Assembly: GCA_905372565.1 (NCBI GenBank)
Contig: CAJPPK010000007.1
Location: forward strand, 11,997-75,996
Length of the DNA: 64,000 nucleotides
Origin: an uncultured Porphyromonas sp.
Lineage (GTDB): Bacteria; Bacteroidota; Bacteroidia; Bacteroidales; Porphyromonadaceae
Direction: 5' to 3'
The position numbers and the translations under genes are program-made. Below the pieces are notes generated by a model. The model saw only the letters and a list, made by a program, of their open reading frames with translations. It was not told the DNA's origin and did not search any database. Positions 3,995-58,675 of the stretch are shown here, piece by piece (position 1 is the first letter of the stretch; each line of letters opens with the position of its first letter).

Positions 3995-4088
3995 CCAACT
4001 AGTAGGCAACAGTAGTGCCCCTCAAGAGGCAACAGTATTACCCCTCGAGGGGCACTACTGTTGCCTCTTTTGTGTTGATACTGCTACC
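3995..4088 (+). repeat. Family-1 intergenic element, copy L1: four 15-bp GGCA-N7-TGCC-type units at a 23-bp period
   Basis: Units at 4005, 4028, 4051 and 4074 (GGCAACAGTAGTGCC / GGCAACAGTATTACC / GGCACTACTGTTGCC / degenerate). 3995-4023 and 4047-4066 form a perfect 20-bp stem followed by CTTTTG. The same element recurs at 16112, 21214 and 41009. Confidence 0.85.
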
Positions 4089-4323
4089 CCCATGGGATGA
4101 GCCTTGCTGATCGAGGTGTTTCCTCTCGCTAGGGAGGGGAAGAGGAGCTTGTTTAGCATACTTTAAGCCTAAGTCGCTGACATATTGACATATAAGTAAT
4201 CCTTCTTGTCGTATTTTAGTGGTGAAGTCTGCCACTTTGGCGGATTTCTTCGTTTAGGTATTCCCTTTGCATCTGCCTTTGACGAGAGCGATGTTGCTCC
4301 CAAGACAATACGAACACAAAAAG

Positions 4324-16069: not shown

Positions 16070-16111
16070 GTGAGCCATGGGTGAAGTTTCGCCGAAGGGG
16101 AGATACAAAGG

Positions 16112-16205
16112 AGCATCAGTATTAACACAAAAGGGGCATCAGTAGTGCCTCTCCTGGGGTAATACTGTTGCCTCTGGAGAGGCACTACTGTTGCCTACTA
16201 GTTGG
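16112..16205 (-). repeat. Family-1 intergenic element, copy L2 (inverted relative to L1)
   Basis: Units at 16112, 16135, 16158 and 16181, exactly 23 bp apart, ending in TACTAGTTGG (reverse complement of the CCAACTAGTA that opens L1 and L3). The reverse complement aligns with L1 over about 95 bp. Confidence 0.85.
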
Positions 16206-16403
16206 ATTTTCGCTCCCCTCTCTCGAGGTCGCTCTGAGGAGGGGAGCGGAGGGGAAAGTATCCTGCTTGATCCTATGCTTTGGCTGTCGAATGAACTCCA
16301 GATTGACTTCCAGAAAGGAGGTGCTACCTGCCATGGAGAGATTTACAGGCTTAGACATTTTGTACAAAGATTTTAAGGAGCATGTATTGTAAGAGAGAAT
16401 ACA

Positions 16404-21187: not shown

Positions 21188-21213
21188 TGCCCATTTTTCT
21201 CGCACATGAATTT

Positions 21214-21307
21214 CCAACTAGTAGGCAACAGTAGTGCCACCCGAGGGGCACTACTGTTGCCTGTGAAGAGGCACTACTGATGCCCCTTTTGAGGTAACAC
21301 TGTTACT
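21214..21307 (+). repeat. Family-1 intergenic element, copy L3
   Basis: CCAACTAGTA followed by units at 21224, 21247, 21270 and 21293 (23-bp period): GGCAACAGTAGTGCC / GGCACTACTGTTGCC / GGCACTACTGATGCC / GGTAACACTGTTACT. Confidence 0.85.
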
Positions 21308-21372
21308 CCCGAGGGGATGACCTCTTCCTGAGGGTGGGGATTACAGGCTTTGGATGAGGGGGAAACCCTGCC

Positions 21373-39982: not shown

Positions 39983-41082
39983 AGCGAATAGTCATCTCTG
40001 CGGTCAATCTTCGCAAGGGAGGGACGCTGACTATCCTACGCCAATGTCTTTCGTTCCTCTCCGAGTGGGCTCCTAAAGCAGGCTACGAGGTCGTCGCTCT
40101 AGTGCATAAGCAGGAGCTCGCGGACTATCCTAATATTCGCTACATCGAGCTCCCTTGGGCTGCTACTGGCTGGCTCAAGCGTCTGTGGTGTGAGTATGTC
40201 ACCATGGGGAAGATCTCCCAAGAGCTGGGAGAGATCGATTTATGGCTGTCTCTTCATGATACAACGCCTCGAGTGAAGGCGAAGCGTCAGGCAGTTTATT
40301 GCCAGACGTCCTTCCCATTCTTGAAGTGGCGGTGGAGAGATTTTAGCTTTGATAAGAAGATCCCTCTCTTTGCGATGTTCACCCGCTTTGCTTACCAGTT
40401 CGGAATTCGGAGAAATAGTTACCTCGTTGTCCAGCAGGAATGGTTACGTGAGGGCTTTAGTCGCATGTTTGGCTTGCCTAAGGAGCGCTTTATCGTTGCG
40501 CCACCACCTCGAGAGCCTTTACCCAAGCTGGACCTTAAGAAAGAGGAGGGGGCACCCTTTAACTTCCTCTATGCAGCGACCCCTGATGGGCATAAGAACT
40601 TCGAGTTGCTCTGTGAGGCTACGCAGGAGCTGGAGCGACGTGTTGGGAAAGGGAAGTTCCGCACCATCCTCACGATCAGTGGACAGGAGAATAAGTACGC
40701 CCGTTGGCTCTATGAGCAATGGGGGACCTGCTCTAGTCTTGATTTCCGGGGATTCCTTTCCAAGGAGGAGCTACAGAAGACATACGCTTTGACGGACTGT
40801 CTGGTGTTCCCTTCACGTATCGAGACATGGGGGTTACCGATCTCGGAGTTCTTGCCTTATGAGCGCCCCATGCTCTTGGCAGACCTCCCCTATGCCCATG
40901 AGACCTCTCGGGGAGCGGTCGCTGTAGGCTTCTTTAATCCTACTCAAGTCAATGATCTAGTCGATGCTATGCAGGCTGTCCTGGAGGGGCATTTAGAAGG
41001 GCTAAAGGGGCAACAGTGTTGCCCCATCGGAGGCAATACTGTTGCCTCTTGGGAGGCACTACTGTTGCTCCTTTTGGGTTAA
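39979..41082 (+). CDS. Glycosyltransferase (GT-B, family 1/4-like)
   Basis: The ATG at 39979 overlaps the preceding stop (ATGA). Motif ETWGLPISEFLPYERPMLLAD. The last ~25 codons and the stop codon lie inside repeat L4. Confidence 0.75.
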   Translation: MKRIVISAVNLRKGGTLTILRQCLSFLSEWAPKAGYEVVALVHKQELADYPNIRYIELPWAATGWLKRLWCEYVTMGKISQELGEIDLWLSLHDTTPRVKAKRQAVYCQTSFPFLKWRWRDFSFDKKIPLFAMFTRFAYQFGIRRNSYLVVQQEWLREGFSRMFGLPKERFIVAPPPREPLPKLDLKKEEGAPFNFLYAATPDGHKNFELLCEATQELERRVGKGKFRTILTISGQENKYARWLYEQWGTCSSLDFRGFLSKEELQKTYALTDCLVFPSRIETWGLPISEFLPYERPMLLADLPYAHETSRGAVAVGFFNPTQVNDLVDAMQAVLEGHLEGLKGQQCCPIGGNTVASWEALLLLLLG

Positions 41083-41092
41083 CACTAGCAAC
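41009..41092 (+). repeat. Family-1 element, copy L4, overlapping the 3' end of a glycosyltransferase gene
   Basis: Units at 41009 (GGCAACAGTGTTGCC, self-palindromic), 41032, 41055 and 41078 (23-bp period). It lacks the CCAACTAGTA leader. The next ATG is at 41101. Confidence 0.8.
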
Positions 41093-41100
41093 ACTGAACT

Positions 41101-42225
41101 ATGAAGATATTACAACTAGGAAAGTTCTATCCGATCCGTGGTGGAGTCGAGAAGGTGATGGAGATCTTCACCGAAGGGCTAGCCGAGCGTGGCTATGCTT
41201 CGGATATGCTCTGTGCTTCTCATGATGGACGGGTCGATGACATCATCTTGGGCGACGAATCGAAGATCATGCGCACCAAGACGTGGATGAAGCTAGCCGC
41301 CACGATGATTTCACCAGCGATGATCTGGCGCCTACGTAAGATCTGCCGTGAGTATGACATTATCCACATTCACCACCCAGATCCGATGGCGACAGTGGCA
41401 CTCTTCTGCTCGGGCTATAAGGGGAAGGTTGTCCTGCATTGGCATAGCGACATCTTGAAGCAGAAGTTTCTTCTTCGCTTCTTTGCTCCCCTACAGAATT
41501 GGCTCATCCGTCGAGCTGACTTGATCCTCGGCACGACACCTGTCTATGTGAAGGAGTCTCCCTTCCTAAGTAAGGTGCAGTTGAAGACGGGCTACCTGCC
41601 TATCGGGGTCGATCCACACCCTTGGCTAGCCGATGAGATCCGTGAGATCCGCCAGCAGTATCCTGACAAGAAGATCCTCTTTAATATCGGGCGTCTAGTC
41701 TCCTACAAGGGGTACCAGTATCTCATCGAAGCCATGGTACACCTTCCTCAGGAATATGTCTTGCTTATCGGAGGGAAAGGTCCGCTCAAACAAGAGCTAC
41801 AAGAGTTCATCGATCGCTTGGGCCTCCAGGAGCGTGTTAAGCTTCTAGGCTTCATCTCGGATACGCTTAAGCCTGCCTACTTCGGAGCTTGCGATGTCTT
41901 CTGTCTCAGCTCCACGCTCAAGACCGAGGCTTATGCCATCGTGCAGGTCGAAGCGATGTCTCTTGGACGACCTATCGTCGCTACCGAGATCCCTGGGTCA
42001 GGTGTAGCATGGGTCAATGCCCACCAAGAGTCTGGCCTGAATGTCCCGATCGAAGATGCTCCAGCACTCGCTCAGGCCATTCAGAAGATTTGCCAAGATC
42101 CCGAGCTCTGGAGCTCCTATAGCAAGGGTTCACGCCAACGTTTCTTCGAAATCTTTACGAAGGATGAGATGATCAACCAGCTCATTCGTATCTATACAGA
42201 ACTCCTCCATCCTACCATCCCATAG
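41101..42225 (+). CDS. Glycosyltransferase family 4
   Basis: 374 aa with the GT-B motif KTEAYAIVQVEAMSLGRPIVAT. Confidence 0.85.
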   Translation: MKILQLGKFYPIRGGVEKVMEIFTEGLAERGYASDMLCASHDGRVDDIILGDESKIMRTKTWMKLAATMISPAMIWRLRKICREYDIIHIHHPDPMATVALFCSGYKGKVVLHWHSDILKQKFLLRFFAPLQNWLIRRADLILGTTPVYVKESPFLSKVQLKTGYLPIGVDPHPWLADEIREIRQQYPDKKILFNIGRLVSYKGYQYLIEAMVHLPQEYVLLIGGKGPLKQELQEFIDRLGLQERVKLLGFISDTLKPAYFGACDVFCLSSTLKTEAYAIVQVEAMSLGRPIVATEIPGSGVAWVNAHQESGLNVPIEDAPALAQAIQKICQDPELWSSYSKGSRQRFFEIFTKDEMINQLIRIYTELLHPTIP

Positions 42226-43708: not shown

Positions 43709-46113
43709 TGGTAATGGCTAATCAAGATAATAGACCAGCGGTAAAGCAGGACTCGGCAAGTGAGATTAACCTGCTAGATATCTTCTTCTACCTACTCCGC
43801 TACTGGTACCTTTACGTGTTAAGCGTAGGACTTATCGTAGCCTTCGCACTCTATCGTAATGCTAAGCAGCCTTACGTCTATGAGTCTTCCGTGAAGATCT
43901 TCATCAAGGATGCTTCGCAGCGAGCCATGATGGATGCTGATGTGCTACGCTTTGCTCGAACCAATCGACTCAACATGGATAACGAGCAGATGCAGCTGAC
44001 CTCAAGGCGAGTCATCGAGCGCACCGTGAAGATGGCTAATGCCAATGTCTTTTATAAGGCACAGGAAGGCCTTCGCCAGATTGAGCTTTATAACGAGTCT
44101 CCTTTCTCTATGAAGTTCCTCGATACGCTTGATCGTGCGACCTCTTTTGTCGTGCGTTATAGTGATGCGGGACATGCTTTAGTCATCCCCGCTGGGCGGA
44201 AGAAGGCCATTACGGTACCTCTTAATGTCCCTGTCAAGATTGGAGAAGAACGCTTTATTATCGAGCCACGTGATAGTTACAACAGTCCATGGAAACATGC
44301 TTCGATACAGGTACAGAGAGCATCTTTCTCTCAGACTGTACGCTATTACCAAAAGGCCGTTACGATTACTCAACCAGTAAATCGTGCCTCTACGCTGACT
44401 CTTGATCTACAGGATCAGAATAAGAAGCGTGCACTAGATATTCTCTTAGCCCAGGTCGCAGCATACAACCAAGAAGAACTTGATATGCGCAATCAGGTCG
44501 CTAAGAATACGGCAGACTTCGTGAATGATCGTTTGGCTACCCTTAGCCAGGAGCTAGGTTTGGTAGAAGGCGACATGGAGCGTTTCCTCATCTCAAACCG
44601 AACGATTGACTTTGATAGCAAGGTGGGGCGCTTCAACTCTCGCTCCGCTGAGACCGAAACGCAGGTTCTAGAGATTGAGACCCAGCTCAAGCTCGTTTCC
44701 TATATGCTTTCACAGATCAATTCTGCTGGCAAGCAATACGGATATCTTCCGCTAAATATTGGAGCTCCTGATCCAGCCCTTGATGGCTATATCAATCAGT
44801 ATAACCAGCTCAAGTCTCAGCGTGATAAACTCATCGAGGGAGCGGGAGGAAGCACAGAGAATCCTGTGATTACTGAGTATGATCGTGCTCTAGATGAACT
44901 TCGTCGCAGTGCTGTCGAAAGTCTAAATCAGCGTGCTTCTCTCCTTCGTGCACGTCTTAAGGATACAGAGGGTATTCAGTCAAGCCTCCTCTCTAAACTT
45001 CCAGAAGTCTCTAATCAAGGTCGTGAAAAGGCCGATATCGATCGTCGCCTAGAGATCCGTCAGGCTCTCTATACCGAGCTCCTAAACAAAAGAGAAGAGT
45101 ATGCTCTACGTCAGGCAATGACGCAGGATAGCGCAACCATCCTTGATATGAATGATGCGCCAGCTCCTCCTATTAGCCCTAATACGACGCGAGCGGTTCT
45201 AATCGCCCTACTTGTAGGATTGGCTCTCCCATCGATCTTCTTGATCATTCGTCTTCTCTCCGATAATAAGGTGCGTAGCCGTAAGGATATCATGGATAGA
45301 GTCTCCATCCCCTTCCTTGGCGATATTCCTAAGGAAGAAGAGGCTCGTCGTGGTCATACACGTGGTGCTCGTGAGCAGGGCTCTGATGAGACTTCTGAGG
45401 CCTTCCGCGTCCTCCGTGAGAATCTCCGCTTCATGGTTAACTCTAGTGAAGGTGAGTCAAAGAAGAAGATCATCTTTACCTCGTTTGGTGAGTCTGCAGG
45501 TAAATCTTATGTGTCTTATAACCTAGCCAAGACGCTTGGTTTTGCTGGTTATCGAGTTGCCTTGGTAGACCTTGATCTGCGTAAGGGTACGCTATCTCGA
45601 CGTATAGGGCTCTCTGGAGTAGGGGTTACCGAGTATCTGGCTAATGGAGATATCCAGCTTGCTCAGATTATTCGTAAGGATCCTAATGATCCGAAGCTCT
45701 CTGTTGTGATTGCTGGTGCTGTGCCTCCTAATCCTGCCGAGCTCCTTCTTGGCCGTCGTTTAGATCAGTTGGCAGATGCACTCAGTGCTGAGTATGACTA
45801 TGTGATCTTCGATAACGTGCCCTTCGGTAGTGTCGCTGATGCTGCTATTGCTAACCGTGTGGCTGACCTAACGATCTTTGTTCTGCGTGCAGCTAAGCTC
45901 GATCGCCGCGCTCTGCCTGAGCTCCAGCGTCTCTATGATGAAGATATCCTTCGTAATATGGCTCTTGTCCTCAATGGTGCTACGGAGAGTGGTCATGGTT
46001 ATGGCTACGGCTACGGTTATGGCTATGGTTACGGCTATGGCTATGGTTATGGCAACAAGAAAAAGAAGAGCCCACTACGCCGTCTTCTTCGTCGCTTAGG
46101 TATTAAGCGTTAA
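43708..46113 (+). CDS. Polysaccharide co-polymerase / BY-type tyrosine autokinase (Wzc-like)
   Basis: 801 aa. Wzz-type N-terminal domain with coiled coils, a second TM segment, a P-loop FGESAGKS, DLDLRKG, Walker B YDYVIFDNVP, and a C-terminal (GY)9 cluster. The true start may be the ATG at 43714. Confidence 0.9.
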   Translation: MVMANQDNRPAVKQDSASEINLLDIFFYLLRYWYLYVLSVGLIVAFALYRNAKQPYVYESSVKIFIKDASQRAMMDADVLRFARTNRLNMDNEQMQLTSRRVIERTVKMANANVFYKAQEGLRQIELYNESPFSMKFLDTLDRATSFVVRYSDAGHALVIPAGRKKAITVPLNVPVKIGEERFIIEPRDSYNSPWKHASIQVQRASFSQTVRYYQKAVTITQPVNRASTLTLDLQDQNKKRALDILLAQVAAYNQEELDMRNQVAKNTADFVNDRLATLSQELGLVEGDMERFLISNRTIDFDSKVGRFNSRSAETETQVLEIETQLKLVSYMLSQINSAGKQYGYLPLNIGAPDPALDGYINQYNQLKSQRDKLIEGAGGSTENPVITEYDRALDELRRSAVESLNQRASLLRARLKDTEGIQSSLLSKLPEVSNQGREKADIDRRLEIRQALYTELLNKREEYALRQAMTQDSATILDMNDAPAPPISPNTTRAVLIALLVGLALPSIFLIIRLLSDNKVRSRKDIMDRVSIPFLGDIPKEEEARRGHTRGAREQGSDETSEAFRVLRENLRFMVNSSEGESKKKIIFTSFGESAGKSYVSYNLAKTLGFAGYRVALVDLDLRKGTLSRRIGLSGVGVTEYLANGDIQLAQIIRKDPNDPKLSVVIAGAVPPNPAELLLGRRLDQLADALSAEYDYVIFDNVPFGSVADAAIANRVADLTIFVLRAAKLDRRALPELQRLYDEDILRNMALVLNGATESGHGYGYGYGYGYGYGYGYGYGNKKKKSPLRRLLRRLGIKR
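45997..46050 (+). repeat. Hexanucleotide coding repeat (GGY-TAY)x9 encoding (Gly-Tyr)9
   Basis: The sequence reads ggt tat ggc tac ggc tac ggt tat ggc tat ggt tac ggc tat ggc tat ggt tat. Synonymous positions vary between units. Confidence 0.9.
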
Positions 46114-49443: not shown

Positions 49444-49701
49444 CTATGCCTGACGGGAGATCTGGTCGAATTCCTCAGGTGTGCCTAGATGGCGCAGGAG
49501 CACCTGCACCATGCTGGGTGGTAGCATCCGCTGGCGAGGGCGGAATCCCAGCTTTTGTAGCTCCGAGAGCAGCAGGGGATCCTGGCGGATGAGTAGGCGG
49601 AAGTGGCGGCTGGCTAGGTCAGCTCGCTCCTCGGGGAAGTACAGACAGGCGAGCTCCTTCATTACATAGGTACGGAAGGCGATCGAAGGGGGAGTCTTCA
49701 T
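49444..49701 (-). CDS. DUF4248-family small protein
   Basis: 85 aa. The pattern ..ELACLYFP....ASRHFRLLI..DPLLLSELQKLGF....RMLPPSMVQVLLRHLGTPE is typical of Bacteroidales DUF4248 proteins, which are often found next to polysaccharide loci. Confidence 0.6.
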   Translation of the reverse strand: MKTPPSIAFRTYVMKELACLYFPEERADLASRHFRLLIRQDPLLLSELQKLGFRPRQRMLPPSMVQVLLRHLGTPEEFDQISRQA

Positions 49702-50000: not shown

Positions 50001-50092
50001 CGCTATATACCCAACTGCACGATCACGATATACGTATTCGATGTGTCACAATATACCCAATGACGAAGTCAGAATATACGTAACCTGGTGGC
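50001..50092 (+). repeat. Family-2 array A: four 23-bp units with a CAnnATATAC core
   Basis: ATATAC occurs at 50005, 50028, 50051 and 50074, exactly 23 bp apart. About 14 bp is conserved and about 9 bp is variable per unit. Confidence 0.9.
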
Positions 50093-50189
50093 TCTAGATA
50101 ATGCTCTCTCTCTACGGAGCTAGGGTGTGTGTGGTAGACGGGGTGAAGGTGTGAGGTAAAACAGGGTAGCTCACACCATGCACTTCCTC

Positions 50190-50239
50190 GATAAAACAAT
50201 CAGGCTACCCATTAGGCTTGAGTGCCTATGGGTAGCCTG
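50190..50239 (-). terminator. Terminator for the lipoprotein gene (- strand)
   Basis: Stem CAGGCTACCCA / TGGGTAGCCTG, followed on the - strand by ATTGTTTTAT. Confidence 0.6.
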
Positions 50240-50276
50240 ACTGCTACTTCTTTAACTAGGAGTTCGGGAGGCTCCT

Positions 50277-50762
50277 TTAACGCCCCACCCGCTGGAGAGA
50301 GAAGGTCTTGTTCTTATCGAATGGATAGAAGGTGAGGAGCGTCTTCGACTCATTAAGGATCGCATCGGTGTAGAGCTGCTGTACGATGGGAAGCACCTCT
50401 GTGCCCGTCAAGACCTTCTCCGTAAGGGCGGACATGGAGGCAGGATTGATGTGCACCCCACCATTGTAGTAGCGATAGGTGGTCGTTAGCGTGGTCTCCT
50501 GCTCACGTCGCACGGTGTTAGAGCCGGAGCCGTTGGACTGACTTGTTATGGAGCCAAAGCCTACGGTGATGGTGGCCTTCCCTCCACGCTCGAAGGATAG
50601 GAGAATATCGGTCGTGGTTCTCCCTCCTCCTGCTTTGTTCTGGAGGTTGCGTAGCTGCCACTGGGTGCCCGTGATAGGCGTCGTGGCTGGGAGATCATCG
50701 CCACAGGAGCTGAGCCCGAAGGTGATCGCCATGAGGAGCAGGAGTGTCTTGAAGAGCTTCAT
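50277..50762 (-). CDS. Lipoprotein of unknown function
   Basis: 161 aa with a lipobox (FGLSSC). The mature part is rich in beta-strand-like segments. I recognise no family. Confidence 0.65.
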   Translation of the reverse strand: MKLFKTLLLLMAITFGLSSCGDDLPATTPITGTQWQLRNLQNKAGGGRTTTDILLSFERGGKATITVGFGSITSQSNGSGSNTVRREQETTLTTTYRYYNGGVHINPASMSALTEKVLTGTEVLPIVQQLYTDAILNESKTLLTFYPFDKNKTFSLQRVGR

Positions 50763-50889
50763 CGGATGTTTCTATTAAATCAAGTGAATAGCCCCCTGAG
50801 GGAGGGTTATGGGGATATATTGTTTACCTCTCTAACGTGCGAAGATACACCTTCTGTATATAAAGGGCTAGTTTAACCGATATTTACGC

Positions 50890-50897
50890 TATCTTTG
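50890..50897 (+). promoter_or_regulatory. -7 promoter box TATCTTTG upstream of the tandem ompA pair
   Basis: Exact TAnnTTTG match 54 nt upstream of the ATG at 50951. Confidence 0.5.
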
Positions 50898-50950
50898 TGG
50901 CATCCATAACTAGTACAATCAGTCACTATTTTAAATAGGTATTACGAATT

Positions 50951-52087
50951 ATGAAGCTAAAGCACACGCTGCTCCTCTTAGCCGGACTATCCAGTTTCGC
51001 AGCTAAGGCTCAAACGATGCAGCCCTCTATGACGGATGCTCCTGCTCACCGCGTTGCTTTCGAGCACAAGCCCGGAGCTAACTACTTCATCACCCTCGGT
51101 GGTGGGGTCGGTGCTATGTTCCTCGAGGGGAACAACAAGCCCTCACTCACAGACCGTCTCTCTTGGAATGCGTCACTGGCTATCGGCAAGTGGCACAATC
51201 CCTACTATGCTACTCGTCTGAAGCTCGTCGGTGGGGAAGCCTTCACCTATCAGAACTTCACGGGTCTGCGTAACAAGAACTACTTCGTCGGTGGTCACTA
51301 TGACTTCCTCTTCGATGTAGTCAACTACTTCTCCAGCTACCAGCAGGACCGTGTCTTCCACCTCATCCCCTTCGTCGGTGTAGGCTATGAGTACAAGTTC
51401 GATCACACGGATCCTAAGCTCACCAACACGCACCACGTGACGGCTAACGCTGGTCTCCAGCTGAACTTCCACGTCGCACCACGTGTAGATCTCTTCCTCG
51501 AGGGAGAAGCTAGCTACAGTGGTCTGAATGTGCGCTACCACTACCGTCCTAACTACTCCAATGCCTTCCGTGTATCTGCACAGGCAGGTATCGGATTCCG
51601 TCTCGGTAAGCAGGGCTTCAAGGCTGTAGAGCCTCTTGATCAGGCTTACATCGATGGCCTCCAGAATCAGCTCAATGCCCTCCGTGCAGAGAATGCAGAG
51701 CTCTCCAAGCGTCCTGCTAACTGCCCCGATGCATCTATGATGGCTCCTGTAGAAGCTGCCTCCGATCGCTTCGTAGCTGATAAGTCCATCCTCTTCGCTC
51801 AGGGTCAGTCTAAGGTCTCCAAGGATCAGCTCATCACGGTCTTTGACGCTGCTGACTTCGCTCTCAAGGGAGAAGGTAGCCTTGTCGTCACGGGCTATAT
51901 CGCTAAGAACGAAACTCGCTTCAAGGGTCTCGCTGAGAAGCGTGCTAAGGCTGTCGCTACCCTACTTACCGACCAGTATGGTGTCGCTGCTGACAAGATC
52001 ACGGTCGAATGGAAGGAAGCAGATGAAGCCCCTTATGGCTCTGCTCAGCTCGGCTGGAACCGTGTCGTGATCATCCGCTCTAAGTAA
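50951..52087 (+). CDS. OmpA-family major outer membrane protein, first of a tandem pair (Pgm6/Pgm7-like)
   Basis: 378 aa. Signal peptide ..FAAKAQ, beta-barrel N-terminal half, coiled coil LQNQLNALRAENAELSKRP, then an OmpA_C domain. Tandem paralogous OmpA-like genes are known from Porphyromonas gingivalis. Confidence 0.85.
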   Translation: MKLKHTLLLLAGLSSFAAKAQTMQPSMTDAPAHRVAFEHKPGANYFITLGGGVGAMFLEGNNKPSLTDRLSWNASLAIGKWHNPYYATRLKLVGGEAFTYQNFTGLRNKNYFVGGHYDFLFDVVNYFSSYQQDRVFHLIPFVGVGYEYKFDHTDPKLTNTHHVTANAGLQLNFHVAPRVDLFLEGEASYSGLNVRYHYRPNYSNAFRVSAQAGIGFRLGKQGFKAVEPLDQAYIDGLQNQLNALRAENAELSKRPANCPDASMMAPVEAASDRFVADKSILFAQGQSKVSKDQLITVFDAADFALKGEGSLVVTGYIAKNETRFKGLAEKRAKAVATLLTDQYGVAADKITVEWKEADEAPYGSAQLGWNRVVIIRSK

Positions 52088-52121
52088 TCCCTGCTAACCG
52101 CAATAGACAACCAACGCTCTA

Positions 52122-53282
52122 ATGAAGACGAAAATAATGACGCTCGCCCTAGCGGCTCTCGCTGCTAGTGCGCTTCAGGCTCAAGAGCCCGCTCAGAAGC
52201 CTGCATATAAGACTTCCTTTGTCAAGGATGGTAAGGCTCACTGGTTCCTCGAAGTCGGGGATGCTGCTACCATCAGCCTCGCAGGGAATAACCGCGATGT
52301 GAACTTTACTGACCGTGTGAGCCTGCTCAACCCTAGCTTGGCTATCGGTCGCTGGTCTACGCCTGCCTTCGGGATGCGTCTCTCGCTCCAGGGTGGTAAG
52401 ACCTTTGACTACGCTCGTCCTGCAGGTCTGTGGGCTGCTGCCACTACGACCAACGGCTACCTCCGTCATGATGTGACCTATGGTTTCGCTCAGTACGACT
52501 TCCTCTTTGACCTCGTTAACTACTTCGCTCCTTACAAGGAGAACCGCTTCTTCCACGTCATTCCCTTCCTCGGTGTCGGTCTTGGCTACAAGCATGAAGT
52601 AGAAGCTATCCATGTCAAGGACAAGAGCCATCGCTTCAGCCCACTCGCTGATGCTGGTCTCCAGCTCAAGCTCCGTCTCGCTCGCTTCGTAGACTTCAAC
52701 CTCGAAGGGAAGATCACGGCTTCTGATCTCCGTCTCCCATCACAGGAGGATCACGTGAAGTCAGGTACGGACTTCATCGCTCAGGCTGGTGCTTCGCTGA
52801 CCTTCCACCTCGGTCGTAAGGCTTTCGAAGCTATCACGCCTAATGACGAAGCGCTCATCGCTGACCTCAACGGACAGATCAATGCCCTCCGTGCAGAGAA
52901 TGCAGAGCTCGCTAAGCGTCCCGTTCGTTGCCCAGACGTAGAGATCCCTGTCGCAGACTCTAAGGTCATCGGTAATGTCATCTACTTCCGCCTCAATAGT
53001 GCTGTAGTCGACAAGAACCAGATGATCAATGTCTACAACATCGCTGAATACGCTAAGAGCAATACCGAGACGATCACGCTCGTAGGCTATGCAGACCGTC
53101 AGACCGGTAATCCTAACTACAACATGGCTCTCTCTAAGCGCCGTGCTGAAGCTGTAGCCGACATCCTCGTGAAGAAGTATGGTATCTCTCGCGATCGTCT
53201 TAAGATCGATTGGAAGGGTGATACGGTACAGCCTTACGCAGAGAATGTCTGGAACCGTATCGTCCTCATGAGCGCTGAATAA
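52122..53282 (+). CDS. OmpA-family major outer membrane protein, second of the tandem pair
   Basis: 386 aa with the same architecture as the first copy (LNGQINALRAENAELAKRP; GYADRQTGNPNYNMALSKRRAEAV). Confidence 0.85.
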   Translation: MKTKIMTLALAALAASALQAQEPAQKPAYKTSFVKDGKAHWFLEVGDAATISLAGNNRDVNFTDRVSLLNPSLAIGRWSTPAFGMRLSLQGGKTFDYARPAGLWAAATTTNGYLRHDVTYGFAQYDFLFDLVNYFAPYKENRFFHVIPFLGVGLGYKHEVEAIHVKDKSHRFSPLADAGLQLKLRLARFVDFNLEGKITASDLRLPSQEDHVKSGTDFIAQAGASLTFHLGRKAFEAITPNDEALIADLNGQINALRAENAELAKRPVRCPDVEIPVADSKVIGNVIYFRLNSAVVDKNQMINVYNIAEYAKSNTETITLVGYADRQTGNPNYNMALSKRRAEAVADILVKKYGISRDRLKIDWKGDTVQPYAENVWNRIVLMSAE

Positions 53283-53314
53283 GCAGCTCTTCGTAGACGG
53301 TATTCTCCGTATTC

Positions 53315-53366
53315 TACTCCCTCATCCGTAGGCGATCGCCTCGGGTGAGGGAGTACTCGTTTCTGT
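53315..53366 (+). terminator. Rho-independent terminator after the ompA pair
   Basis: 14-bp stem TACTCCCTCATCCG / CGGGTGAGGGAGTA (one G-T pair) followed by CTCGTTTCT. Confidence 0.7.
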
Positions 53367-53391
53367 AGCTGGAGAGCGTGGGTCTATCCCT

Positions 53392-53506
53392 AACTTAGTA
53401 TGATATATAGCCTGCTAGCGGAGTTAGGTATATTGTGACAGTGTGGTCGGGTATATTCTGACTCCTCGGTTACGTATATAGCAATGAAGCTGCCACATAT
53501 ATGGTG
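53392..53506 (-). repeat. Family-2 array B: five 23-bp units, inverted relative to array A
   Basis: GTATAT occurs at 53428, 53451 and 53474 (23-bp spacing), with degenerate copies one period either side. The - strand units read CACAATATACC.., CAGAATATACC.. and TGCTATATACGTAACC... Confidence 0.85.
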
Positions 53507-53590
53507 ACTAAAGAGTAGAGCTTAGATGGGTAGGCAAGTAGGATAGAGGAGCGCAGGGGACTGCAGGGTGAAGTACTCCTGCTTTTTGTG

Positions 53591-53598
53591 TAAGTTTG
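53591..53598 (+). promoter_or_regulatory. -7 promoter box TAAGTTTG upstream of the DUF805 gene
   Basis: Exact TAnnTTTG match 68 nt upstream of the ATG at 53666. Confidence 0.4.
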
Positions 53599-53665: not shown

Positions 53666-54217
53666 ATGGATCAATATACCCTCTTCCAGCATTTCCAGAG
53701 GTGCTATAGTCAGAAGTTCCTCTGCTTTACAGGTCGTTCTCGGCGAAGAGAATTCTGGGGCTTTGCTCTCTATTATGGTCTTGCGACGCTTGCCACGATG
53801 CTACTGCTTCTCGGGGCTAGATTCTATATCCTCTATGCCAATAGCTCGGTGATGCTCTACGTGATGGTCATGCTCTGGGGAGTGCTACAGCTCTTTCAGG
53901 TGGCGTCGCTTCTCCCCTTGCTGGCGGTCACGACACGTCGGCTACATGATGTGGGACGAGCGGGCTGGTGGCAACTCATCGCCTATATCCCAGCTCTACT
54001 TCTGCTGGCCTTCTATGTGTGGATGACGTATGGGCTTTCTCCTTTACTACTAGTCGTCTTGGTTAGTAGTGGTGCTAAGGGAGTGCTATGGCTTGGAGGG
54101 ATCCTACTAGCACTTACCTTGGTTGGGGTCATCACTCTCCTTGTTTTCCTTGGTCGTCGTGGAGAGCAGACCGAGAACAGCTACGGTCTGAGTCCCTTGC
54201 TAGAGATAGCAAACTGA
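53666..54217 (+). CDS. DUF805-family inner membrane protein
   Basis: 183 aa. N-terminal GRSRRREFWGF motif and TM helices typical of DUF805 (YhaH-like) proteins. Confidence 0.7.
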   Translation: MDQYTLFQHFQRCYSQKFLCFTGRSRRREFWGFALYYGLATLATMLLLLGARFYILYANSSVMLYVMVMLWGVLQLFQVASLLPLLAVTTRRLHDVGRAGWWQLIAYIPALLLLAFYVWMTYGLSPLLLVVLVSSGAKGVLWLGGILLALTLVGVITLLVFLGRRGEQTENSYGLSPLLEIAN

Positions 54218-54297: not shown

Positions 54298-56025
54298 ATG
54301 AAAAGCGTTTGTAATCGATTCTCTTGTTGGATAGATTATGTGACCCGTGTTTACGAGCTACGTATTGTAGCGCTTATTTTATTCCTTATCCAGCTTCTCC
54401 CTGTTGTCTATTATTACATAGAGCGTAGCCGTTTACCCTATGCCGGAGAGTTTGTTTATCAGGGAATTAGTTTAATATCATGGACGGTGATCCCAGTCCT
54501 ACTGATTGCTTTGTTCCCCTGGGGAAGATTACGTAAGGTGCTGACCGTGGTTGCCTTTATGCTCTATGCCTTCCTCATGCTCTTTGAGGTCTTTCTAGTC
54601 TATTCCTATAGTTCCCTCTATACAGACAGCATAGCCCTGAATATCTTAGCTACCAATCCGGGGGAGGCATCTGCATTCTTGGAGCATCTAAATTATCGAG
54701 TCTTTATTATCCCTCTAGCCGTCTTATTGCTATTAGGGATAGGCCTCTTTCGCTTCCATAGATGTCGTAGTAGGCTCTCTTCCAAGTGGTCTACGATCTT
54801 GACCTTGGTATGTTTTCTCCCGGTGCTATTAAGTGTCTTCATCGTACAGCCTACGCAGAGGAAGACGAACAGCTATCTCTTCATGGCACCCGTGGAGCGC
54901 TTCTATGTGGGGACGACTACGTGTATCCATGATGCACAAGAGCTAGAAGAGTATGCTCGTCAGATGACGCAGTTGGATTTGGGAAATATTCGGAAAACGA
55001 AGGATTTGAGAGGTGTAAATGTAGTGGTTGTCGTAGGCGAATCCATGCGTCGAGACTACATGCATTGTTATGGTTATCCATTAGCTAATACTCCAGCACA
55101 GGATTCCTTGATTGCCACGGGAGATCTGATCCCTTTCACCGATGTCGTCTCATCGGCATCTTGGACTACAGGGTCCGTCTCGCAGGCGATGAGTTTCTAT
55201 CGCCGGGATAAGGAGGATGAAGCATGGTATCACTACCCCAGTCTACCTTATGTGATGAGTAAGGCCGGTTACTACTCCTATTGGCTTAGTAACCAAGAGA
55301 AGCAGGGGGCAGGATTGCAGCCTATCGCTACGCTTACGACCACAGCAGACAGTGTGCGCTTTGCGAAGAATCGAACAGTCGGAGATTGGGATGCTGCGTA
55401 TGACCTAGACTTGATCCCATTACTCCCGAGATTTAATAAACTCCCTCAAGGAAAGCATTCGCTTTTCCAAGTGATTCATCTGATGGGATCACACACCCCT
55501 TACAACGTGCGCTCTATTCCTCAGCTATCTCCATTCAAGGTAGAAGATCTTCCCAGTACTTTGCCTAATGGAGCTCCGATGCCACAAGATATGAGGCGGC
55601 GCGAGATTATACGTGACTACGTAAATTCTATACGTTATAATGACGAGGTGATACGCCAGATTATTGCTCATTTCTCAGAGGAGCCCACACTGCTGATATA
55701 TTTCTCTGATCACGGGCAGGTACTCTTTGAGAATCCTAGTCGCCCTGACTATTATGAGCATGAGGTCTCTTTGCCAGGGGTTGTCGTCCCATTCTTAGTC
55801 TACTGTAGTCCTAGCTTACGTAAGGCTCATCCTGAGCTTTATGACATCATTCAGCGAGCTAAGGGGCGGAGAATTATGAATGATCTCTTCTCTAATAGTC
55901 TCTGCGGGCTACTCGGGATCCAGTTGAAGTACTATGAATCTCGGTATGATTTCTTCTCGGACGACTATGATGAAGGGCGTAAACGTCTTATCATAGGTTA
56001 TGATGGTACACCGATAGATCTCTAG
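54298..56025 (+). CDS. Phosphoethanolamine transferase / sulfatase-family membrane protein (second paralog)
   Basis: 575 aa with the same architecture as 2249-3979 (VVVGESMRRDYM, IHLMGSHTPY, YFSDHGQ). Confidence 0.75.
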   Translation: MKSVCNRFSCWIDYVTRVYELRIVALILFLIQLLPVVYYYIERSRLPYAGEFVYQGISLISWTVIPVLLIALFPWGRLRKVLTVVAFMLYAFLMLFEVFLVYSYSSLYTDSIALNILATNPGEASAFLEHLNYRVFIIPLAVLLLLGIGLFRFHRCRSRLSSKWSTILTLVCFLPVLLSVFIVQPTQRKTNSYLFMAPVERFYVGTTTCIHDAQELEEYARQMTQLDLGNIRKTKDLRGVNVVVVVGESMRRDYMHCYGYPLANTPAQDSLIATGDLIPFTDVVSSASWTTGSVSQAMSFYRRDKEDEAWYHYPSLPYVMSKAGYYSYWLSNQEKQGAGLQPIATLTTTADSVRFAKNRTVGDWDAAYDLDLIPLLPRFNKLPQGKHSLFQVIHLMGSHTPYNVRSIPQLSPFKVEDLPSTLPNGAPMPQDMRRREIIRDYVNSIRYNDEVIRQIIAHFSEEPTLLIYFSDHGQVLFENPSRPDYYEHEVSLPGVVVPFLVYCSPSLRKAHPELYDIIQRAKGRRIMNDLFSNSLCGLLGIQLKYYESRYDFFSDDYDEGRKRLIIGYDGTPIDL

Positions 56026-58339: not shown

Positions 58340-58477
58340 CAGAGGATGTGAGGGGGATATTCTAGTCAATAATCCGTGCAAAGATAAGGTATCCTACCCC
58401 ATTCTGTTCGTTTGGGCTCGCTAAGGACTGTCTGGAGGCTTCTCCCGAAGGGAGGAGAAGGGAAGATTTCGGCGTGA

Positions 58478-58565
58478 AAGGTAGGGCTTTACTCTAGTAA
58501 AGGTCTACCTTTCAGCGAGGAAAGGTAGACCTTGGGGGTGGCTAAGGTAGACCTTGATGGAAGGG
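58478..58565 (+). repeat. Family-3 array Q: four 22-bp units with a palindromic AAGGT-NN-ACCTT core in a divergent promoter region
   Basis: AAGGT occurs at 58478, 58500, 58522 and 58544, exactly 22 bp apart. The units are AAGGTAGGGCTT.., AAGGTCTACCTT.., AAGGTAGACCTT.. and AAGGTAGACCTT... Confidence 0.8.
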
Positions 58566-58675
58566 GAGATCTTCCTTGATCGCTCCGGAGCGTAGCCCGT
58601 TCGGTTGCTCGGGGGTACGCCGGAAGCGATGAGCATCGAGGTGAGGTGACTTTGGGATAGGTGCTTACATTGGCG

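Follow-up and report, generated by a model that had tools for sequence, protein, structure and literature searches.

Introduction

Dispersed intergenic repeats in bacteria are usually repetitive extragenic palindromes (REPs), MITEs (miniature inverted-repeat transposable elements) or minisatellites prone to slippage. In the genus Porphyromonas, BrickBuilt has been described from Porphyromonas gingivalis and P. gulae as a 23-nt minisatellite/MITE (Klein et al. 2015, PMC4596501). It has the consensus AGAYCATARTATCCTCTCRTRTG and leader and tail segments with IS5-type terminal inverted repeats (TIRs; GAGACCTTTGCA), and its units, which are 89-100% alike within an element, number from 1 to 22.8 and vary between strains (PMC4596501). 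REPs and bacterial interspersed mosaic elements (BIMEs) are palindromic extragenic repeats with a GTAG or CGTC tag, of which several families can share a genome and turn over between species (PMC3733652). Here we describe arrays of 23-bp repeats in a 64,000-nt stretch of DNA from an uncultured Porphyromonas sp. (the window), where two of them lie on either side of a locus made up of a lipoprotein gene and two OmpA-family genes (the ompA locus). These arrays belong to a dispersed family, family 1, which differs on each count from the three usual kinds of repeat.

Phased direct repeats of similar size also occur in plasmids and at transposon ends. Plasmid pPS10 carries four 22-bp iterons and the parC partition site of pSK41 four 20-bp repeats; each such repeat binds one protomer or dimer, and together they form a cooperative nucleoprotein complex. 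The right end of Tn7 has four contiguous TnsB sites. An earlier reading of the window, the original prediction, had raised among several possibilities, and as its central one, that its two arrays are the inverted, Tn7/Mu-type ends of a transposon-like 3.3-kb ompA module that could be excised or inverted.

A dispersed family of phased intergenic arrays

On the + strand the motif ATATAC starts at 50005, 50028, 50051 and 50074, and its reverse complement GTATAT marks a - strand array at 53428, 53451 and 53474, in both cases in 23-bp steps. The 64-kb window holds five same-strand ATATAC pairs 15-34 bp apart, all of them spaced by exactly 23 bp and all inside the two arrays, and the arrays as originally described are confirmed both from the sequence and from this count. 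The motif CANNATATAC occurs nine times in the window (G+C content 52.9%) against 1.25 expected, a number reached in none of 100 shuffles, and a position matrix gives the seven good units 22-25 bits and the rest of the window no more than about 13 bits. The two phased arrays are real and far beyond chance. Comparison of the left and right intergenic regions by BLAST gave matches confined to the arrays, and the claim that the two regions are otherwise dissimilar was correct. Neither array was reported by Tandem Repeats Finder run on the window, because the units share only their cores and are otherwise too unlike.

The strain comparison drew on about 20 strain-level copies of the locus, taken from contigs that were fetched via the exact OmpA2 and DUF4248 proteins and from metagenome contigs with 94-97% identity to the window. 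The right array had been described as three sites with degenerate copies to either side. A decayed copy is indeed present, but most strains have a canonical array of four units followed by a decayed fifth; unit 1 of this array is CACCATATAC in most strains and carries a point change to ATATAT in the window strain.

Metagenome contigs were scanned with a degenerate two-unit pattern (CASRATATACSY-N11-CASRATATACSY), and the matches were oriented and clustered. The 65 stretches found in this way represent at least 27 distinct loci, the window's two included, with up to 13 loci in one sample and five on one 162-kb contig, where the density of about one per 32 kb equals that of the window. Nearly all loci have four units and a few have five; arrays of two or three units, or of more than five, were never found. 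The consensus over 110 units is CACRATATACSYAAYC (core pattern T-CAC-R-ATATAC-S-Y-A-A-Y-C), usually preceded by T, and defines a non-palindromic core of about 16 bp and a variable spacer of about 7 bp in an element of about 92 bp. Core positions carry 1.2-2.0 bits of information, and positions 17-20 about 0. The conserved core and variable spacer had been recognised in the original prediction, although at sizes of 14 and 9 bp.

All family-1 arrays are intergenic. They occur in both orientations relative to neighbouring genes (among co-directional loci, 9 in one orientation vs 6 in the other), at many loci about 20-180 bp downstream of gene ends and at six loci between divergent gene starts. 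Most are single within their 5-15 kb loci. Where two arrays lie near each other they may be convergent (the window), tandem (L029, L035) or divergent (L045/L077), and thus do not always form inverted pairs around a cargo; other pairs enclose ordinary genes, for example rsmG or a DEAD-box helicase gene. A special array-pair spacing of 3.1-3.4 kb was considered and rejected, since the two or three ordinary genes that separate one long intergenic region from the next account for this distance, and an avoidance of convergent intergenic regions (0/17 vs 4/21 long background regions) was not significant. The 44 open reading frames (ORFs) that flank arrays are unrelated housekeeping genes, for example those for RNase III, L13, S12, IF-2, MeaB and glycogen synthase. 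The idea of a regulon was rejected, as no Pfam family recurs among these ORFs besides two HU-HIG and two glycosyltransferase genes.

The two arrays of the window are ordinary members of this dispersed, lineage-specific intergenic family with tens of copies per genome. With arrays at a density of about one in 32 kb, two in inverted orientation at a distance of 3.4 kb are nothing unusual, and their inverted placement on either side of the ompA genes is coincidental, each of two long intergenic regions that happen to be neighbours having a copy.

A strict three-unit scan of 185,579 species genomes gave 14 matches, none in Porphyromonas. Almost all of them came from unrelated phyla and were 23-bp tandem repeats close to perfect, an artefact that arises because a periodic query selects them. 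At least 20 family-1 loci of the source organism would match this query; the organism, although common in the sampled ENA metagenomes, is seemingly absent or masked in that collection, and the scan says little on its own genome. Literature searches yielded no earlier account of the family: those with the motif returned only primers and unrelated text, and on dispersed 23-bp repeats of Porphyromonas nothing beyond BrickBuilt.

Core conservation and a putative protein-binding platform

Spacers of different loci match at 2.36 of 7 positions where 2.40 of 7 are expected from composition, and therefore no locus is a recent copy of another. Between strains the core changed by 1.8%, against 6.1% for the spacer and 5.1% for the flanks (p ~1e-9). 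Motif-based detection biases this comparison, which was repeated in two ways: units not needed for detection gave 3.6% vs 6.3% (p=0.04), and in the protein-anchored strains alone variable columns numbered 3/88 vs 75/749 (p=0.05). The slower change of the core relative to spacers and flanks suggests selection on the phased sites; its direction holds, with modest support from the unbiased tests.

We interpret the family-1 array as a dispersed intergenic element that acts as a phased platform for cooperative protein binding, a putative role to which we assign a probability of about 0.5. The strict 23-bp phase, the fixed count of four and the indifference to strand point to multi-site binding at the level of DNA. 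The array would be bound cooperatively, between genes and at intervals of 23 bp (about 2.2 helical turns), by a single sequence-specific DNA-binding protein in the form of four protomers or two dimers. Such a complex could serve as an upstream regulatory site, as a transcriptional insulator or roadblock, or as a chromosome-organising site. The repeated, in-register arrays also double as recombination joints. Of the readings listed in the original prediction, transposase ends are discarded, while generic fixed-phase cooperative protein binding survives and is strengthened, since the four-unit count is fixed, the core is conserved among random spacers, and the core changes less.

Iterons and partition sites likewise consist of about four direct repeats that adjoin each other, measure about 20-23 bp and combine conserved with free positions. 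They are, however, single loci beside rep or par genes, whereas family 1 occupies at least 27 chromosomal loci beside unrelated housekeeping genes and has no adjacent cognate gene among the flanking ORFs. It is also missing from viral contigs, where the family pattern gave 0 matches and 13 matches to a fourfold ATATAC pattern were unrelated perfect tandem repeats.

Several points weigh against a binding platform. The binder is putative, as are its binding and any effect on transcription. The housekeeping genes next to the arrays are unrelated and show no regulon-like theme, which is odd for a classical regulator, and family 1 is missing at orthologous sites in relatives, where other families are found, a turnover more typical of selfish repeats than of operators. 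A spacing of 23 bp does not correspond to a whole number of helical turns. Significance in the unbiased selection tests is only marginal (p ~0.04-0.05), and the metagenome contigs were assigned to the window's organism on the strength of 94-97% identity in the ompA locus and of common samples and coverage, not locus by locus.

Relation to selfish repeats

The main rival explanation is a selfish non-autonomous repeat of REP/BIME, MITE or BrickBuilt kind, whose arrays would be spread or maintained by a trans-acting enzyme with the core as its recognition site. We regard this origin as unlikely, although much about family 1 fits it. The tens of copies lie scattered between genes and are specific to the lineage, and strain-level breakpoints and a gene indel coincide with them. 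Several core families exist side by side and replace one another between related species, which is also seen for REP families (PMC3733652), and a 23-nt minisatellite, BrickBuilt, is known from the same genus (PMC4596501).

The likeness to BrickBuilt extends to several features. Both share a genus-level neighbourhood, a period of exactly 23 with units that abut without gaps, a unit that is half conserved and half variable, a strictly intergenic position, about 20 or more dispersed copies per genome and a narrow host range. In contrast, the consensus AGAYCATARTATCCTCTCRTRTG is unmatched (at up to three mismatches) in the window and in 124 loci, and its best rotation agrees at 11 of 18 informative positions, which 72% of shuffled consensuses equal or exceed. 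TIR-like matches near arrays number 2 vs 1.8 expected, family 1 has no leader or tail, and it has four units (rarely five) everywhere, with spacers unrelated between units. Membership in BrickBuilt was rejected on consensus, flanks, TIRs and copy-number behaviour.

REPs and BIMEs resemble family 1 in being short, extragenic and often just downstream of genes, and they can cluster and serve as recombination or protein-binding sites. The family-1 core differs in being non-palindromic, with no GTAG or CGTC tag in CACRATATACSYAAYC and no folding signal, and in forming four direct repeats at a strict 23-bp phase instead of single or inverted palindromes. Among the 44 array-flanking ORFs there was no gene for a REP-associated tyrosine transposase (RAYT, IS200/IS605-type) and no enrichment of transposases. 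In the 120-bp flanks of 25 loci no columns were conserved except the T before unit 1 and, at many loci, a weak GATAG-like remnant after unit 4, and the array edges in these 25 loci had no inverted termini and no conserved or duplicated bases. A generic MITE was rejected, as the 25 loci have neither terminal inverted repeats nor target-site duplications. The lack of any spacer common to two loci, which leaves no sign of recent copying, and the copy number fixed at four further argue against a selfish repeat.

Recombination at the arrays

A 3.1-kb insertion is present between the DUF4248 and lipoprotein genes in L103 (211-kb contig), L110 (92-kb contig), L111 and L048. Read in the window's orientation, these cassette alleles have the structure [b1 b2 x3 x4]-3.1 kb-[a1 b2' b3 b4], with two direct four-unit arrays, and the single-array alleles are [b1 b2 b3 b4]. 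Since the polymorphisms in units 2-4 of single-array strains match the right-hand copy of the cassette strains, the empty allele is the product of an in-register crossover within units 1-2 (or the reverse event took place); both products keep four units. In L048 there has been a further exchange between the two array copies. Position 11 of unit 2 is C in L004, L006 and L095 and G in the other single-array strains. The crossover point thus appears to vary, suggesting homologous exchange over a fixed site-specific cut, and the two cassette-flanking copies share about 45 bp including locus-specific spacers, enough for homologous recombination.

The cassette encodes a predicted lipoprotein of 818 aa (Table 1) and, upstream of its gene, a conserved 53-aa ORF. 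Neither had a match in Pfam, NCBIfam, PADLOC, PHROGs or PDB sequences, and neither is a recombinase candidate. Only three distant homologs of the lipoprotein (48-56%) were found in 5.8 billion proteins, all from samples that contain a relative whose OmpA2 is 89% identical, and in that species the homologs have a phased array of the 22-bp family upstream (L105 237-334).

A second locus has a synteny breakpoint 4 bp before the 5' edge of a family-1 array, seen in L063 compared with L044 and L091. Downstream of it the contigs are 97% identical over 3.3 kb; upstream, 573 bp of L063 (1-577) are unrelated, encode the C-terminus of a different gene and match none of the collected loci. Among cross-sample comparisons of the about 17 loci seen in several samples, 52/63 were collinear on both sides. 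The arrays double as recombination joints, and the left array is the in-register joint of a 3.1-kb gene presence/absence polymorphism.

These events might also be read as the work of a dedicated site-specific recombinase that moves small gene cassettes in register, with the arrays as its att-type sites. The cassette between two direct four-unit arrays, the empty allele as an exact in-register hybrid, the exchange in L048 and the breakpoint at an array edge of the second locus speak for it. We consider it improbable, however, as these are one or two cases among the multi-sample loci, the sequence common to both copies suffices for homologous recombination at a crossover point that appears variable, no recombinase is encoded in the cassette or nearby, and other array pairs enclose housekeeping genes.

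RNA-level and mutational explanations

It is very unlikely that the motif is read in the transcript, as part of an untranslated region or small RNA that offers sites to an RNA-binding protein or a processing signal. The location of many arrays shortly downstream of gene ends, and of the right array between two terminator-like hairpins, would suit such a role, but the arrays show no bias in strand with respect to the flanking genes, six loci fall between gene starts that diverge, and a search of Rfam over the whole window gave no match. Folding of seven array strands as single-stranded DNA gave z values between +0.1 and +1.7 for six of them and -2.6 for the seventh. The occurrence in both orientations and the lack of structure beyond that of shuffles point to the DNA level rather than the RNA level.

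A neutral minisatellite, produced by 23-bp tandem duplication at many sites and now eroding, is still harder to credit. The lineage does still undergo duplication or deletion of exactly 23 bp, at a sequence outside family 1: the segment GGTAnAGCnGnGTAGCTCAnGnC (window 50155-50177), between the left array and the lipoprotein terminator, is single in the window, L004 and L006 and a tandem double in L001, L002, L003 and L005. This is the sole 23-bp length change in the left intergenic region, and the array is unaffected. Neutral decay would be expected to erode all positions equally, yet the cores are near-invariant over 110 units while the spacers are random, and the copy number is fixed at four across loci and strains. 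A slippage minisatellite (variable-number tandem repeat) was likewise rejected, because both window arrays have four units in every strain compared and their spacers are not homogenised.

The ompA locus in strains and relatives

The gene order at the locus is DUF4248 (-), left array, terminator hairpin, lipoprotein gene (-), two OmpA-family genes (+), terminator hairpin, right array and DUF805 (+) (Table 1). The enclosed 3.3-kb segment has one order and orientation across the about 20 strain-level contigs; the structural variation at the left array concerns the 3.1-kb insertion beside the ompA module and leaves the module itself intact. The ompA2-DUF805 intergenic length is a constant 383 bp in seven aligned strains.

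Relatives were compared through OmpA2 homologs at 89, 83, 78, 76 and 66% identity, placed in their contigs; OmpA homologs extend down to 52% identity, and each examined relative has its own genomic context. None of the five examined relatives (89-66% OmpA2) has a family-1 unit above 16 bits, compared with a median of 25 for true units. The 83% and 76% relatives keep the lipoprotein-ompA-ompA module, and the 89% and 66% relatives the ompA pair, in each case without family-1 arrays, so that the synteny check proposed with the original prediction went against it. In the 89% relative the ompA2-DUF805 junction is also kept, 223 bp shorter and array-free. Locating the ends of the insertion by alignment with this relative failed, the intergenic sequence being too diverged. 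Because the module occurs array-free in relatives, the arrays are a later, lineage-specific addition to an ancestral module of core genes, and are therefore not the ends of mobile ompA cargo.

The notion of inverted arrays as ends of an excisable or invertible module is scarcely tenable: three to four phased sites, each of about 22 bp and all oriented alike over a span of about 90 bp, do recall the TnsB sites of the Tn7 right end, but the arrays occur at at least 27 unrelated intergenic loci, are mostly single or paired in every orientation, and have no partner end, no conserved interior sequence beside them and no transposition genes, while the ompA module is ancestral, shows no inversion, excision or presence/absence in the about 20 strain-level contigs, and has a junction with DUF805 that is syntenic across the right 'end' in the 89% relative. 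Scattered single arrays and an enclosed segment invariant between strains are the pattern that the original prediction itself had named as speaking against its model.

The right array is flanked by two hairpins and lies about 85-200 bp upstream of the likely DUF805 promoter. Further downstream, a sulfatase/EptA-like gene (54298-56025) is strain-variable and missing from L001, L095, L096, L098, L104 and L110; in strains without it the DUF805 protein has 193 aa (vs 183 aa) and its gene abuts an acyltransferase gene. A phase scan of the junction of the sulfatase/EptA-like gene in the window gave no phased array.

Table 1. Coordinates of array families, neighbouring genes and signals in the window, and of the strain-variable cassette gene.
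Feature	Position	Strand	Remarks
Second 23-bp family, arrays of about four units	3999-4102, 16104-16206, 21202-21318, 40982-41108		core GGCAACAGTAGTGCC or its reverse complement
DUF4248 gene (PF14053)	49444..49701	-	start 300 bp from 5' side of left array
Left family-1 array	50001..50092	+	four head-to-tail 23-bp units: CGCTATATACCCAAC.., CACGATATACGTATT.., CACAATATACCCAAT.., CAGAATATACGTAAC..
Terminator-type hairpin CAGGCTACCCAT...ATGGGTAGCCTG of lipoprotein gene	50201..50239	-	between lipoprotein gene and left array; kept in aligned strains
161-aa lipoprotein gene	50277..50762	-	no family assignment; between the arrays
Tandem OmpA-family genes (378 and 386 aa)	50951..53282	+	between the arrays
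Terminator-type hairpin TACTCCCTCA...TGAGGGAGTA after ompA2	53315..53355	+	between ompA2 and right array; partly caught by terminator scan at 53342-53359
Decayed fifth unit CAGGCTATATATC	53392..53414	-	3' side of right array; 2-nt insertion
Right family-1 array	53415..53506	-	four units; unit 1 mutated to ATATAT in window strain
Terminator-like hairpin with T run	53563-53590		between right array and DUF805; abuts candidate -7 box
Candidate Bacteroidetes-type -7 box TAAGTTTG	53591-53598		upstream of DUF805
DUF805 gene	53666..54217	+	start 160 bp from 5' side of right array
Third family, 22-bp period, four to five units	58466-58591		near-palindromic core AAAGGTAGACC / AAAGGTCTACC, then TT
Cassette gene for 818-aa predicted lipoprotein	L103 3728-6370; L110 5815-8457; also L111, L048		signal peptide ends LVSC

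Other array families and the 22/23-bp period

A motif-agnostic scan, at periods of 15-40 bp, for windows of four units in which 30% or more of the columns agree throughout gave zero matches in shuffles. In the window it found five arrays at 23 bp (two families), one at 22 bp (a third family) and one 18-bp coding repeat. In the window plus 485 kb of partly redundant contigs ascribed to its organism (L028-L092), 87/88 matches at 22/23 bp were outside long ORFs, whereas all matches at 15, 18 and 24 bp were inside them. Arrays in relatives (88 kb) occurred solely at 22 and 23 bp, while unrelated genomes had many periods. The 18-bp (6-aa) tandem repeat TATGGCTATGGTTACGGC, which the phase scan placed in a long stop-free frame at window 45981-46063, is probably a protein segment of repetitive, Gly/Tyr-rich make-up.

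The cores number at least seven, several of them palindromic (GGCAACAGTAGTGCC, AAGGTCTACCTT, GGGACAAnTGTCCC, GACCTACnGTAGGTC, ACGTATACGT, CATTACTAATC), and the palindromic GGCAACAGTAGTGCC and GGGACAAnTGTCCC families, which occur in the same genome as family 1, fold strongly (z -7.9 and -5.7) and may stand nearer to REPs. Arrays of the GGCAACAGTAGTGCC family, also present in L028, L050, L062, L066 and L069, have units in both orientations, contain GTAG and carry the end motif CCAACTAGTAGG; the strong fold and the GTAG suggest that this family may be REP-like. Arrays related to the 22-bp family of the window occur in L038, L050/L056, L052 and L084.

In the 83% relative a 23-bp array of GGCGGTACTGTTGCT type, a variant of the GGCAACAGTAGTGCC family with 7-8 units, lies directly downstream of ompA2 (L093 4486-4646), and similar units are also found downstream of the lipoprotein gene. 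The 89% relative has 22-bp arrays of AAAGGTAGAGGCTTT type upstream of ompA1 (L021 4484-4571) and after DUF805 (L022 4382-4485). Equivalent positions around the ompA operon are filled by different array families in different species.

The 22/23-bp rule spans at least seven unrelated cores. A doubtful but wider possibility is a clade-wide class of modules of fixed geometry, with about four units, a 22/23-bp period and a family-specific core of 12-16 bp, which would be read by a family of oligomeric DNA-binding proteins. Such modules would mark boundaries around highly expressed surface-protein operons and double as sites of in-register cassette exchange, with families replacing each other at equivalent positions and BrickBuilt as a P. 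gingivalis offshoot.

Implications for Porphyromonas

The arrays are invisible to Tandem Repeats Finder and can be mistaken for transposon ends or mini-CRISPRs, and they mark sites of strain-level gene gain and loss. With its direct repeats, a count fixed at four, a strict 23-bp phase and apparent selection confined to a 16-bp core, family 1 looks like a standardised docking platform. If a protein family does read these arrays, this would give the unexplained BrickBuilt repeat a functional context and would reveal that the Porphyromonas group, to which important oral pathogens belong, organises its chromosome or its transcription at a level so far unrecognised.

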